Source: Alkalispirochaeta sp. (GTDB taxonomy: Bacteria; Spirochaetota; Spirochaetia; DSM-27196; Alkalispirochaetaceae). From it: DNA of 64,000 bases. The notes under the pieces are model-generated. The model had not been told where the DNA came from. It saw only the letters and a list, made by a program, of their open reading frames with translations, and did no database searches. Of this stretch, positions 36,604 to 40,852 are shown in pieces; the first letter of the stretch is position 1, and the number at the start of each line of letters is the position of its first letter. The stretch covers positions 4,224,001 to 4,288,000 of the forward strand of contig OZ271854.1 in NCBI GenBank assembly GCA_965601925.1. Direction: 5' to 3'. The position numbers and the translations under genes were made by a program.

Positions 36604-37530
36604 CTACCTCGACGTAGCCGAGCCGGTGCGTACCGTGATTCTTCCCGAGATGAGGTCCTCCGTTACTTGCGCGATCTCCTCTTCGAGCCCCTCGGGTAGG
36701 TCGTTATGTGAGAACGGCGCGAGTCGTATCGCATCGGTGGCCAGACCGAGGTTGACTTCCGTTCCGATCGACTTCCTGCGTTCCAGGATATCGCAGCTGA
36801 TCTCTATGACCGCGCGGTCGATCCGCTTTAACATCGACGTGATGACGTTGCGCGGCGCTAGAAAACTTTGATCGCGGTCGACACCGATCACCTTTTTTCC
36901 GAGATCTTTCGCCGTACGAATAACACCACGCCCGGCGGCTCCCGCGGCGTGGAACAGCACGTCGCATCCTCCGGTGTACATCGCCTCCGCCGTGTTTCGT
37001 CCCGCTTGAAAGCTGATGAAACTCCCGCAGTACTCCACGCGCGCCTCTACTCCCCCCACATACTCAACACCTTGAACAAAGCCGTTGGAGAAACGGTCCA
37101 TGAGATCCCCGCGCACTCCGCCGACAAAGCCGACCGTTCGCGTCCTGCTCGATCTGGCCGCAACTACTCCCGCCAGAAATGAGCCGTGATGCTCGTCAAA
37201 ACGCACCGATACGACGTTGGGAGGAAGGGGATCGAACGACATGTCCACCGTACAAATCAGTATCCTGGGAAAGCGTGGAGCGATGAACTCCACCGCTTCC
37301 TGTGTACCGTAGCCAACCGCCCAAATGAGGTCGAAGCCCGAATGTGCGAGGTATCGAGCGTTCATGAGCGTGTCCTGCTCTTCGTCGGACTCCAGGATCG
37401 TCGTGTGATACCCGAACTCCTCGTTGAGCGCCTTGAGACCACTCCAGGCCGAAAAGAGAAAAGCAGAATCGTCCAGGCGACTTACGCCGGAGATCATGCC
37501 TATCGACGAGCGCGTTTCTATACCGGTCAT
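36604..37530 (-). CDS. BMP/PnrA-family substrate-binding protein lacking a signal peptide
   Basis: DDSAF...AWSGL, GSFLAGVVAA, VGFVGG, DVLFHAAG, VIGVDRDQ and TSMLKRID motifs. Confidence 0.82.
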   Translation of the reverse strand: MTGIETRSSIGMISGVSRLDDSAFLFSAWSGLKALNEEFGYHTTILESDEEQDTLMNARYLAHSGFDLIWAVGYGTQEAVEFIAPRFPRILICTVDMSFDPLPPNVVSVRFDEHHGSFLAGVVAARSSRTRTVGFVGGVRGDLMDRFSNGFVQGVEYVGGVEARVEYCGSFISFQAGRNTAEAMYTGGCDVLFHAAGAAGRGVIRTAKDLGKKVIGVDRDQSFLAPRNVITSMLKRIDRAVIEISCDILERRKSIGTEVNLGLATDAIRLAPFSHNDLPEGLEEEIAQVTEDLISGRITVRTGSATSR

Positions 37531-37636: not shown

Positions 37637-38092
37637 TTACCGCACGATGCGTCCCAGACCGAATCCGCCTAATGCACCGAGGGTCGTACCGATGCCGGTC
37701 GTGATACGACTCCATCGCAGCCGGGACTCAAGGCTCGCCACCTCCGCTTCGTGTTGCATGCTCAAGTCCCTCAACGATCCCGATAGCTGCTCGGATAAGA
37801 TCTCCGATTGTGCGAGCTCCTCCGATAGCCTCTTCGAGGTCTCTTCCTGCTCGCTCAACAGCTGCCTCAATAGCCTGATTTCGTTCTCGTAACTCAGAAG
37901 CGTCTGCAGTTGCTCGTTCGAGAGCATCTCGGCTTCGAGCAAGATCCTCTTCAGCTCGGCGAGCGATGATCTCGTACTGTCCGGCCGCTCTTGCGCGTGG
38001 GCCCCAGACGGCCCACCCAATACCAACACCGAGACCGCAAGCCAGTACCAACGCCGCGACCATCCACCTCGTCTGCATCCTCGCCTCCTCAT
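37637..38092 (-). CDS. Signal peptide, coiled coil and C-terminal Gly-rich hydrophobic tail (ORF B of the nested pair)
   Basis: ATG overlaps the amidase stop (ATGA, 38092-38089); MRRRG..WYWLAVSVLVLGGPSGAHA|QE signal; heptad-like L/E-rich core; ends ITTGIGTTLGALGGFGLGRIVR. Confidence 0.6.
   Translation of the reverse strand: MRRRGCRRGGWSRRWYWLAVSVLVLGGPSGAHAQERPDSTRSSLAELKRILLEAEMLSNEQLQTLLSYENEIRLLRQLLSEQEETSKRLSEELAQSEILSEQLSGSLRDLSMQHEAEVASLESRLRWSRITTGIGTTLGALGGFGLGRIVR
37728..38078 (-). CDS. N-terminal TM plus coiled coil, i-spanin(Rz)-like (ORF A, nested inside ORF B)
   Basis: Strong SD GAGGAGG before ATG 38078; WMVAALVLACGLGVGIGWAVW TM followed by an Ala/Glu/Arg-rich helix. Confidence 0.6.
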   Translation of the reverse strand: MQTRWMVAALVLACGLGVGIGWAVWGPRARAAGQYEIIARRAEEDLARSRDALERATADASELRERNQAIEAAVERAGRDLEEAIGGARTIGDLIRAAIGIVEGLEHATRSGGGEP

Positions 38093-38625
38093 CTGTACGC
38101 TCCTATCTCGCGGACGAACTCGGTCCAGTCCGCACCGTTGTCGACCATCCATAGGGGACACCGTTTGCCGGTGCAATCGTAGTGGCGCAGAATGTGCGAC
38201 TCCGTCGTGATGCCGTGTCGGTGTATGATATCGGCGGTGAGCTCCACCGCCGCGTTCCACGTGGCACGCAAAAAAGCGCCCGACGCGTCGGGGTGACACA
38301 ACTCGATGCCGATCGTGCGCCAATTGGGCTTACCGCCGAGGCGCGTCTCGACCTCGCGTCGCGTTCTGCTCGACGGTCCGGCGTGCCACGCGACCTCATC
38401 CTCGGGAATCATTTGGATGATCTCTCCCTCCAAACCGATTACGTAGTGCGCCGACGCGTAGCGCCCCGGTTCGGTTCTCGGGAGTGCGTCGAAGTAGTCC
38501 CGGATCCGCTGCGCCGTGGCTCCCGGCCATTGCACGTAGTGAATCACCACGCCGGTGACGCGTGGAAGAGGCTGTCCCGGGCGGGTATGCGTATCGACGG
38601 CAATGTGCTTCCTTGCAAGGGTCAA
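38089..38625 (-). CDS. N-acetylmuramoyl-L-alanine amidase (Amidase_2/PGRP-like), endolysin-like, no signal peptide
   Basis: GVVIHY, ASAHYVIG, EVAWHAG, NWRTIGIELC and ILRHYDCTGKRCP (His/His/Cys zinc ligands); start uncertain (TTG 38625 likely; frame open to 38763). Confidence 0.85.
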   Translation of the reverse strand: MTLARKHIAVDTHTRPGQPLPRVTGVVIHYVQWPGATAQRIRDYFDALPRTEPGRYASAHYVIGLEGEIIQMIPEDEVAWHAGPSSRTRREVETRLGGKPNWRTIGIELCHPDASGAFLRATWNAAVELTADIIHRHGITTESHILRHYDCTGKRCPLWMVDNGADWTEFVREIGAYR

Positions 38626-38824
38626 ATGTGTGCTCGCTTTCGTTCGTTTAACAATCTTACATATTATAACCCGAACGTCACTTTGGGAAAAACCAACCTC
38701 ACCGATAGAATTTAACATTTCTTCTTCAAGATTATCCTTACCGACTTGACCCGGGCGGCGCATCCCGTCGATACCGGAGCGCTGTCAATCGAGTCGCCCC
38801 TGTGATATGATCCCGCGGCATAGT

Positions 38825-40852
38825 ATGAACGAAACGCGCAATATCGGAATAATGGCCCACATCGATGCGGGCAAGACAACGACGACGGAACGCATCCTCT
38901 ACTACACCGGCAAGTCCCACCGTATCGGCGAGGTCGACGACGGCTCCGCGACCATGGATTGGATGGTTCAGGAGCAAAATCGAGGAATCACCATAACCTC
39001 GGCCGCGACGACGACATTCTGGCACGATCACAAAATCAACATCATCGATACGCCGGGCCACGTCGATTTTACCGCTGAGGTCGAGCGGAGTTTGCGAGTT
39101 CTCGACGGTGCAATTGCGATCTTCTGCGCCGTCGGGGGTGTCGAGCCGCAGTCGGAGACGGTGTGGCGACAGGCCGATGCGTATAACGTACCCCGAATCG
39201 CCTTCGTCAATAAGATGGATCGCATAGGTGCCGACTTTTTCGGCGTGTTGGAAGAGATACGGAGCAAGCTCCACGCCGAGCCGGTCGCGCTTTCGATTCC
39301 GATCGGTCGCGAAAATGAGTTCGAGGGGATCGTCGATCTGCTTGCCGTGCAGGAGATTCACTGGAGCGAGTCGGACAACGGAACGACCTATGAAACGCGG
39401 CCCGTCCGCGCCGAGTTATCGGAGCAAACGTTTCAATGGCGAGAGAAGCTCCTAGACGCGGTCTCCTCCTACTCCGATGAGATCACCGAGCTGGTTTTGG
39501 ACGACAAAGACGTGCCGCCCGAGGCGATCAAACGTGTACTCCGAGAACAAACGCTTGCCGGGACCGTTCTTCCGGTGACCGTCGGTGCGAGTTTGCGTAA
39601 TATCGGCGTTCAACCGTTGCTCGATATGGTGGTGGACTACCTACCGGCGCCCGAGGAGCTACCGGCCGTTCGGGGCATGCATCCCAAAAAAGGCGACCCG
39701 GTGGACGTCGCACGGACGGTAGAGGGCCAGGCGGTCGGTATGGTTTTTAAGATTCAGGCCGACCGCGACGCCGGATCGTACTCGTTTGTGCGGATGTATC
39801 AGGGGACGCTCAAATCGAGCGGCGCCATATTCAACCACAACATGGGTAAGCGCGAGCGCGTCAACCGTATATTGCGGATGCACGCCAACCGTACCGAACA
39901 GATCGACAGAATAGAGGCGGGAGATATCGCCGTCGTCGTCGGGCTCAAATTGGCACAGACCGGCGATACGATCGGGAGCGAAGGCTTACCGGTGATCCTC
40001 GAGCGAATGCACTTTCCCGAGCCGGTGATCTCGGTGGCGATCGAGCCGCAAACCTTGAGCGAGCGCGACCGGCTCCAGGAGGTATTGGCGATCCTCACCC
40101 GGGAGGATCCGACGTTTCTCTGGAAAGAGGATGAAGACACGGGCGAACTGATTATTTCCGGCATGGGAGAGCTTCACCTCGACGTACTCGTCACCCGCAT
40201 CATCGACGACTACAACGTGCGCGCGAAAGTAGGTAACCCGCAGGTCACCTACCGCGAGACGATCACTCAAACGGTGGAGCATCGCGAGGTGTTCAACAAA
40301 ATCATCGGTGGCAAGGAAAACCACGCGGAGATTACCGTGCGTGTATATCCGCGGCAGCGCGGAGAAGGAAACACGTTCACGAGTATCGTTCCGGCAGATC
40401 GTCTGCCGGCGCCCTTTGCCGAAGCGTGCAAACGCGGCATCGAGGCTTCGTTCAACTCCGGAATCCGGCTGGGATACCCGAGCATCGATATCGGCGTGGA
40501 ACTTATCGACGCCTTGTTCGACGAGGTGACGGCGTCGGAGTTCGCCTTCGAGGCCGCCGCATCGTTGGGGTTCGACGCCGCGTGTTCAGCGGCCGGCGCG
40601 ATACTTCTGGAGCCGGTCATGAACGTGACCATCTTCACGCCGAAAGAGTTCATGGGAGAGGTGATAAGCGGTATCACGACGCGCGGCGGTTTGGTACACG
40701 CGGTCGAGAGTCGTCCGAGCGTCGAGCAAATCTCGGCCGAGGCGCCGCTGCGTAAGATGTTCGGGTACAGCACGGCTCTGCGGAGCACCACGCAGGGTCG
40801 CGGAAACTACGCGATGGAGTTTTCGCACTTCGCGCCGAGCGACAAACAGTAG
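38825..40852 (+). CDS. fusA: Elongation factor G paralogue, spirochaete EF-G2 (recycling)-like
   Basis: [26 protein letters not shown] and GMGELHL motifs; divergent domain IV loops; no rpsL/rpsG/tuf neighbours. Confidence 0.9.

Follow-up and report, generated by a model that had tools for sequence, protein, structure and literature searches.

According to the main spanin survey (PMC6139136), o-spanins are defined as lipoproteins, and its section 15 names type I i-spanins, inner-membrane (IM) lipoprotein i-spanins and non-lipoprotein o-spanins as possibilities outside the survey's coverage. Canonical spanins that follow the lipobox and embedded rules have been predicted in transposable prophages of Leptospira (PMC8705779, main text); PMC10367356 is on Porphyromonas. 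The literature searched does not describe how spirochaete phages breach the outer membrane. Nor was any description of the gene pair presented here found there, subscription journals lying mostly outside that search.

This work concerns a 64,000-nt stretch of an Alkalispirochaeta sp. genome (here called the window), in which two same-strand open reading frames (ORFs), A and B, follow an Amidase_2 endolysin gene, with A nested in B. As judged by sequence comparison, A/B is a genuine dual-coding pair that belongs to the lysis cassettes of spirochaete phages, and it most likely works as a two-component spanin. The pair would fill the outer-membrane-breach slot of spirochaete phages, and it would realise topologies that the survey (PMC6139136) names only as possibilities. 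If such topologies are realised, the rule by which spanins are found, namely to look for a lipoprotein, is widened.

The window locus and its lysis-cassette context

Table 1. Features at the window locus, with positions counted from the first nucleotide of the window
Feature	Positions	Strand	Remarks
Amidase_2 endolysin gene	38089..38625	(-)	TTG start; PF01510 E 5e-27; PHROG endolysin E 3e-35
ORF B, 151 aa	37637..38092	(-)	ATG overlaps amidase TGA as ATGA
ORF A, 116 aa, nested in B	37728..38078	(-)	-1 frame of B
Shine-Dalgarno sequence GAGGAGG for A, within B's first codons	38084..38090	(-)	duplex energy -10.1
TATAAT, low-GC intergenic stretch	38663..38668	(-)	putative promoter element; no good -35 hexamer
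BMP/PnrA-family gene, downstream neighbour	36604..37530	(-)	PF02608 E 5e-60
fusA, divergent neighbour	38807..40852	(+)	

The coordinates and translations that an initial annotation of this DNA gave for the amidase, A and B were reproduced (Table 1), and the frame relation, the Shine-Dalgarno (SD) sequence and the coupling of B to the amidase stop were confirmed from the sequence. A starts 14 nt into B, so that B lies in the +1 frame of A. The amidase lacks a signal peptide, and its residues H29, E108, H148, K154 and C156, which we take to be the zinc/catalytic residues by T7 lysozyme and AmpD, are invariant across 4 aligned homologues. The TATAAT motif that had been pointed out upstream is present, but a promoter scan called no minus-strand promoters at the locus. 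The BMP/PnrA gene, which also occurs in a coral-metagenome relative, has no evident signal peptide, and the lipoprotein signal usual for its family is absent. The claim that no phage genes lie nearby held for the ORFs of 30-46 kb, which were read individually, and for tblastn with five holin-like candidates, which found no holin near the cassette. Because there is no holin candidate, the window copy would be unable to complete canonical lysis alone.

A second copy of the cassette in the same genome (C1:3729558-3730651), with an amidase 82% identical to that of the window, closes a 37-kb prophage that is integrated at tRNA-Thr and flanked by a 16-bp att repeat. This prophage carries integrase, terminase, portal, protease and tape measure genes, and small membrane-protein genes stand on both sides of the second copy. 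Two further genomes of the genus (G014 and G007) show the same layout, with copies in prophages of other types; phage context at most other loci was judged by ORF reading. Between the window and prophage copies, A and B match for 31 codons and then diverge fully, and the prophage-copy A and B frames are still open 139 and 186 codons, respectively, past the divergence. The first 93 nt of B/A (window 37999-38092 against G000:C1:3730091-3730183) hold only 6 differences, and the B/A bodies belong to different subfamilies, that of the window being like L078 and that of the prophage copy like G007. Such similar starts with unlike bodies would reflect either an exchange of modules where the signal/membrane segment ends or strong constraint on both frames. 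For the amidase, dN/dS between the two copies is 0.13, a value to which part of a path through phages has contributed.

Of the 34 tabulated pairs, 26 have a hydrolase gene no more than 1.3 kb upstream, drawn from six unrelated Pfam families: Amidase_2 (6), M15_4 (7), CHAP (5), C39_2 (5, counted by us as an endolysin domain), M23 (2) and VanY (1). At 8/34 pairs no recognised hydrolase is found upstream. A pair that is retained while the endolysin family is exchanged behaves as a lysis accessory independent of the enzyme, as spanins do. An association with endolysins or phages, proposed earlier as a check, is thus seen both in these upstream genes and in the prophage copies, and A/B is very probably a lysis-cassette member. 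The variety of upstream enzymes also bears on the idea that B is an EnvC-like coiled-coil activator of the adjoining amidase, which is suggested by one database name of a B homologue and by the coupling of B to the amidase. With six unrelated hydrolase families in front of the pair, and no M23-like domain in B, we consider this highly improbable.

Window A and B matched no holin model in Pfam or PHROGs, a single one of the 36 B proteins had a PHROG holin match within the 25 families listed, and the B proteins otherwise gave generic coiled-coil matches only against PHROGs. Matches to Rz-like PHROG spanins were weak (best E 9e-5, in at most 8 of 36 A proteins) and may be of a kind that any membrane helix plus coiled coil could produce. 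The holin-like neighbour genes had no match to any holin family.

Several neighbouring genes were recorded in passing. Directly behind the lysis cassette in the prophage of the same genome lies a gene for a 259-aa lipoprotein with a strict lipobox (G000:C1:3731022-3731801); no separate lipoprotein gene was seen behind the cassette at other loci of the window's type. Directly upstream of the amidase at L045 (L045:9720-11092, on G007:C29), in a podovirus-like prophage, is a reverse transcriptase gene (RVT_1 E 1e-20) preceded by a small gene, an arrangement that looks like a diversity-generating retroelement. A third amidase copy in the window's genome (G000:C1:157336-158295, minus strand; L006) is 60% identical and carries a fused Gly/Ala/Thr-rich tail of ~150 residues. 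It is flanked by baseplate genes, and the surrounding cluster, which includes tail sheath and wedge genes but no evident head genes and no A/B pair, is possibly a tailocin-like or remnant tail cluster. At L103 (1849-2301, minus strand), a DUF261 protein takes the place of the endolysin in front of a nested pair, a hint that members of this Borrelia-plasmid family are papain-like wall hydrolases; the 4 Borrelia-family DUF261 loci read had no pair beside them and were not lysis-like cassettes. A Lipase_3 gene (L069:293-913) and a similar-looking gene (L141:2876-3478) each precede the endolysin in their cassettes and possibly encode a further envelope-attacking enzyme.

Distribution and coding status of the nested frames

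Homologues were gathered with a B profile built from 48 B-like proteins and run on 400 genomes of the phylum and on 301 genomes of the family of G200, a genome whose B is identical to Treponema pallidum TP_0222. The wide profile gave matches in 147 of 401 genomes, mostly generic coiled coils. Loci were read for 18 matches of the wide profile and for 25 new ones from the family search, with long-frame matches left out. All loci read, in these and the other searches, yielded 35 intact pairs, from six spirochaete families and two viral contigs, along with two pairs cut by contig ends (L051 and L095) and two frameshifted pairs (L099 and L110); the remaining loci read were unrelated coiled coils. 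The frameshifted pairs are in metagenome-assembled Treponema genomes and reflect decay or assembly error. All 34 tabulated pairs have the same frame relation, with starts -7 to +17 nt apart; the 35th pair is in L141. Among the loci read, no B-type gene lacked the A frame, and the expectation that both frames stay open in homologues was therefore borne out.

Other searches delimit this distribution. A narrow B profile had no match in the 400 phylum genomes beyond the window's own, and the three top Leptospira-like matches of the B profile that were opened (L053, L059 and L066) proved to be unrelated repeat proteins. No match was returned by tblastn of window B and one Treponema B against 50,697 GenBank phages, nor by a pattern scan for window B in JGI metagenomes. 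Pattern scans likewise found P0075 absent from genome contigs and P0045 and P0055 absent from viral contigs. The sole match of an A-profile viral scan (L013) was false, and a viral scan with the amidase gave 4 loci, with no pair in the three read. Among ENA protein records of A and B, no pair fits one DNA exactly, the best leaving 1 conflicting codon of 116.

The coding status of A was assessed by codon shuffling, in which one protein is fixed and its codons are redrawn (20000 shuffles). For the window, the A frame stays open in 1.4% of shuffles with the B protein fixed, and the B frame in 5.1% with the A protein fixed. In the same genome, a comparable -1-frame ORF is present in 48 of 2484 long genes, and one with an SD in 20 of 2484. 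Taken alone, the window copy is only moderately unusual, and for this reason it is conservation that decides whether A is real. Across the pairs, the shuffle probability of an open A frame is at most 0.0045 in 32 of 34, and an SD of -4 or stronger stands ahead of 30/34 A starts and 31/34 B starts. In the overlap, differences by B codon position (first/second/third) were 0.16/0.23/0.25 in the largest of four close-pair groups and 0.09/0.14/0.21, 0.17/0.23/0.20 and 0.17/0.20/0.25 in the others, pairs inside a group not being independent of each other. Position 1 is thus the least variable and position 2 is near position 3, the pattern expected because position 1 of B is position 2 of A. Outside the overlap the third position leads, both in the B tail (0.29/0.26/0.49) and in the amidase (28/14/72 differences). 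Suppressed synonymous variation had been proposed as a further sign of dual coding; at the four-fold sites of one group, changes were not fewer in the overlap (26/57 versus 8/24).

These comparisons show that both frames are under selection, and dual coding is nearly certain. It could be objected that only B is a gene and that A is a shadow frame that resembles a membrane helix plus coiled coil because T-rich and purine-rich codons have similar readings in either frame. This compositional objection is valid, and protein records of A are lacking for both the window and T. pallidum. However, the A frame is open at 35/35 intact loci that range from 33% to 64% GC, it starts with an SD, it encodes a lipobox in one clade, and it leaves the codon-position signature; the shadow-frame explanation is largely refuted, and we give it hardly any weight.

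Orphan copies and TP0222

The site of the window copy is shared with environmental relatives. One coral-metagenome contig spans BMP-B/A-amidase with 127 differences in 1151 nt (89% identity), its gaps being confined to intergenic stretches, and on a second one the start of the amidase is linked to fusA. In a contig from a different study, a 6-nt deletion leaves both frames intact. Of 20 amidase differences listed, 14 fall at third positions. By these comparisons the window copy is apparently a stranded, maintained cassette. In relatives, fusA is preceded by tRNA-Val instead of the cassette at 19 of 21 loci, the other two being cut by contig ends. In two genomes (L031 and L038) an integrase-like gene lies alongside this tRNA-Val. 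The tRNA-Val of the window's genome (G000:C1:4038231-4038303) is 224 kb off and in the other orientation, the genome being rearranged there.

Orphan pairs also occur elsewhere. In Gracilinema caldarium (G420), a pair with both frames open has a transporter gene on one side and a large gene on the other, and no endolysin accompanies it. In G200, vanY stands ahead of the pair and an aminotransferase gene behind it, and its B contains a primer given in PMC10013896. TP0222 was detected in vivo by mass spectrometry with 4 peptides and 27 spectra (PMC10600179) and is transcribed at about the level of vanY (PMC8525777). The A frame inside TP0222 is open for 123 codons (shuffle P 0.001). It is absent, with two starts tried, from a collection of 15 billion proteins, and a motif taken from it was not found in the accessible supplements of PMC10600179, which hold the search database; the second protein thus appears to be unannotated in T. 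pallidum. The TP0222 variant E46D, known from PMC4593590 and PMC10013896, corresponds to Ile to Leu in A. The main text of PMC13749626 has no mention of spanins or TP0222. Behind the vanY orthologues of 17 other genomes in G200's genus there is no pair, from which it follows that the pair was inserted beside vanY in one lineage. TP0222 gains a concrete candidate function from these observations, and a hidden gene is indicated in the small, heavily studied T. pallidum genome, one that can be sought in existing mass-spectrometry data.

We know of no phenotype for the orphan copies, and two explanations of their persistence were weighed. The window copy could be a neutral prophage relic whose decay is still to come, an account confined to this copy and compatible with the spanin reading of the family. 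The holin and all phage genes are gone from it, and the cassette occurs in 3 of 17 genomes of the genus (the window's own, G014 and G007), with the other two copies prophage-borne. Neutral decay fits less well with coral contigs that keep the site and have gaps only between genes, a deletion elsewhere that spares both frames, amidase differences mostly at third positions, and full-length relatives on record for A (91% and 84%) and B (87%, 83% and one of at least 90%). We therefore regard the relic explanation as possible, at appreciably less than an even chance. Alternatively, the orphans could have been domesticated as a host envelope module (a tether, or for vesicle release or local lysis) or be used in trans by a resident prophage. 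The conserved orphan site in the coral-metagenome relatives, the open frames of both the G420 and G200 pairs, and the in vivo detection and transcript level of TP0222 speak for such a role, while the three unrelated sites, the patchy spread and the other genomes of G200's genus that have a vanY orthologue but no pair behind it speak against it; domestication falls only somewhat short of an even chance. The orphan copies make the domestication of a phage membrane-fusion device testable.

Anchors, proposed mechanism and comparison with known systems

Signal peptides and membrane segments were assigned by eye plus Kyte-Doolittle (KD) windows, which agree with the membrane segment claimed earlier for A and the signal peptide and hydrophobic tail claimed for B. 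B is predicted to consist of a cleaved signal peptide (residues 1-33, cleavage between AHA and Q), a ~90-residue helix, a basic cluster and, at the C-terminus, a weakly hydrophobic Gly-rich helix, and A of an N-terminal membrane helix (5-25), a long helix and a conserved C-terminal amphipathic helix. Single-chain models show one long helix each, spanning 40-150 in B (mean pLDDT 84) and 2-111 in A (mean pLDDT 77). Across the pairs, A is always N-terminally anchored, by a membrane helix or, in one Treponema clade, by a lipobox, and every B begins with a signal peptide, continues as a long helix and ends in a hydrophobic helix. Among the most strongly conserved blocks are B 41-50 and A 101-110, which share no DNA. 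A profile-profile comparison found no homology between A and B, a fold search of the B model against BFVD returned nothing at E 0.001, and the ESM Atlas gave unnamed clusters only, with low recognition.

A lipobox followed by a polar domain is present in A in 17/17 pairs of that Treponema clade (10 strict, 7 relaxed) and in 0/17 of the others, to which the window pair belongs. The B tail of the lipobox clade has a mean KD of 2.71 with lysines after it (net +3.4), whereas that of the window's type is weaker, Gly/Ala-rich and nearly terminal (mean KD 1.87, net +0.7; window, 1.04); several window-type tails (KD up to 2.47) are hydrophobic enough to stop in the inner membrane. Because the lipobox group forms a single branch of the B tree (97/91), this anchor co-variation counts as one event and carries no statistic, and a reading of the anchor swap as repeated co-variation was dropped. 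The initial annotation had stated that there is no lipoprotein partner, which stands for the window's subtype but not for the 17 Treponema pairs. It had also reported no lipobox Cys for B, and had not mentioned Cys14 of window A (LVLA-C14). This residue is followed by a hydrophobic stretch and, although common to the window's nearest relatives, is absent in P0015, P0018, L078 and L141, and its lipidation is unlikely. No lipobox with a polar domain occurs in window A or B or within 700 nt on the same strand, and a Cys in a relaxed lipobox-like setting, present in B of L008 and L009, lacks conservation. A convincing lipoprotein is missing from pairs of the window's type.

Taken together, dual-open homologues, linkage to endolysins and prophage copies support the initial suggestion of a spirochaete-type spanin variant, and A/B is probably a spirochaete-phage two-component spanin with non-canonical anchors. 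A and B would be the two spanin halves, whose task would be to break the outer membrane when holin and endolysin have done their work. Their closely spaced starts would allow both proteins to be made from a single message. The C-terminal tip of A may bind the mature N-terminal tip of B, so that the pair would span the periplasm; with the wall degraded, the helices would fold back on each other, the N-anchor of A would meet the C-anchor of B, and the membranes would fuse. In the lipobox clade, B would be a type I inner-membrane protein and A an outer-membrane lipoprotein, giving an inverted spanin. For the window's type, the simplest assumption is that A, in the manner of Rz, is a type II inner-membrane protein. 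The least certain step is that B is secreted and its weak Gly/Ala-rich tail inserts in the outer membrane, which we propose tentatively; an alpha-helical outer-membrane anchor has little precedent, which counts against the model for this type.

If the B tail is not in the outer membrane, both partners are inner-membrane proteins. As a heterodimer they could then set the timing of lysis or assist the signal-less endolysin in crossing the membrane, in a holin- or antiholin-like way and with no outer-membrane role. Neither window-type partner has a proven outer-membrane signal, N-anchored and C-anchored helices in one membrane can pair antiparallel, and the window and two other orphans are without a holin candidate. 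However, the prophage pairs are flanked by separate small genes with multiple membrane helices, the lipoprotein A of 17 pairs has no membrane-spanning part for hole formation, and at most loci no other spanin candidate was seen within 700 nt; we consider such a heterodimer quite unlikely, and the two-component spanin remains the preferred reading. A bolder extension of it is that the anchors are able to swap membranes, including a lipoprotein-free form with a C-terminal alpha-helix in the outer membrane, and that bacteria have tamed this class at least three times. T. pallidum would then make a 123-residue membrane protein from within TP0222, and the two together would serve as a resident tether or fusion device linking both membranes; the window cassette would have been tamed for autolysis or vesicle release. 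We regard this extension, taken whole, as rather unlikely.

SNAREs and class I viral fusion proteins bring about fusion by helix zippering. B resembles them in its long helix, basic juxtamembrane cluster and C-terminal helix, an analogy only, with no homology claimed. The Leptospira prophage spanins likewise belong to a spirochaete phage lysis module, beside an M23 peptidase; unlike A/B, they were predicted by the canonical rule, and the comparison is made through the main text of PMC8705779, which does not detail them. With the unimolecular spanin T1 gp11, as described in PMC6139136, B shares a C-terminal membrane helix on an exported protein. In contrast, gp11 is one lipoprotein and mainly beta, and B is all helix, has no conserved lipobox and always has its partner A.

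A/B resembles lambda Rz/Rz1 in comprising two membrane-anchored periplasmic proteins, encoded by nested genes in +1/-1 frames within a lysis cassette. A has the build of Rz, and its N-terminal helix, long helix and weak Rz-like matches make it a candidate i-spanin; in the lipobox clade, this partner is a lipoprotein instead. The summed periplasmic length, ~185 residues by our count, is inside the range of 62-300 given in the survey (PMC6139136). There, in ~70% of embedded pairs, the o-spanin begins at ~0.4-0.5 of the i-spanin length, whereas A and B start together. The outer gene also differs, B being led by a signal peptide and ending in a C-terminal helix rather than being type II, and both partners are long helices, with no convincing lipoprotein in the window's type. 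The lipobox that defines the o-spanin is absent from the window pair and present only in A of the 17 Treponema pairs. The pair is thus not placed in the Rz/Rz1 family, because pairs of the window's type lack the lipoprotein and those of the lipobox type have an inverted topology. The lipobox clade fits directly the type I or lipoprotein i-spanin possibility named in PMC6139136.
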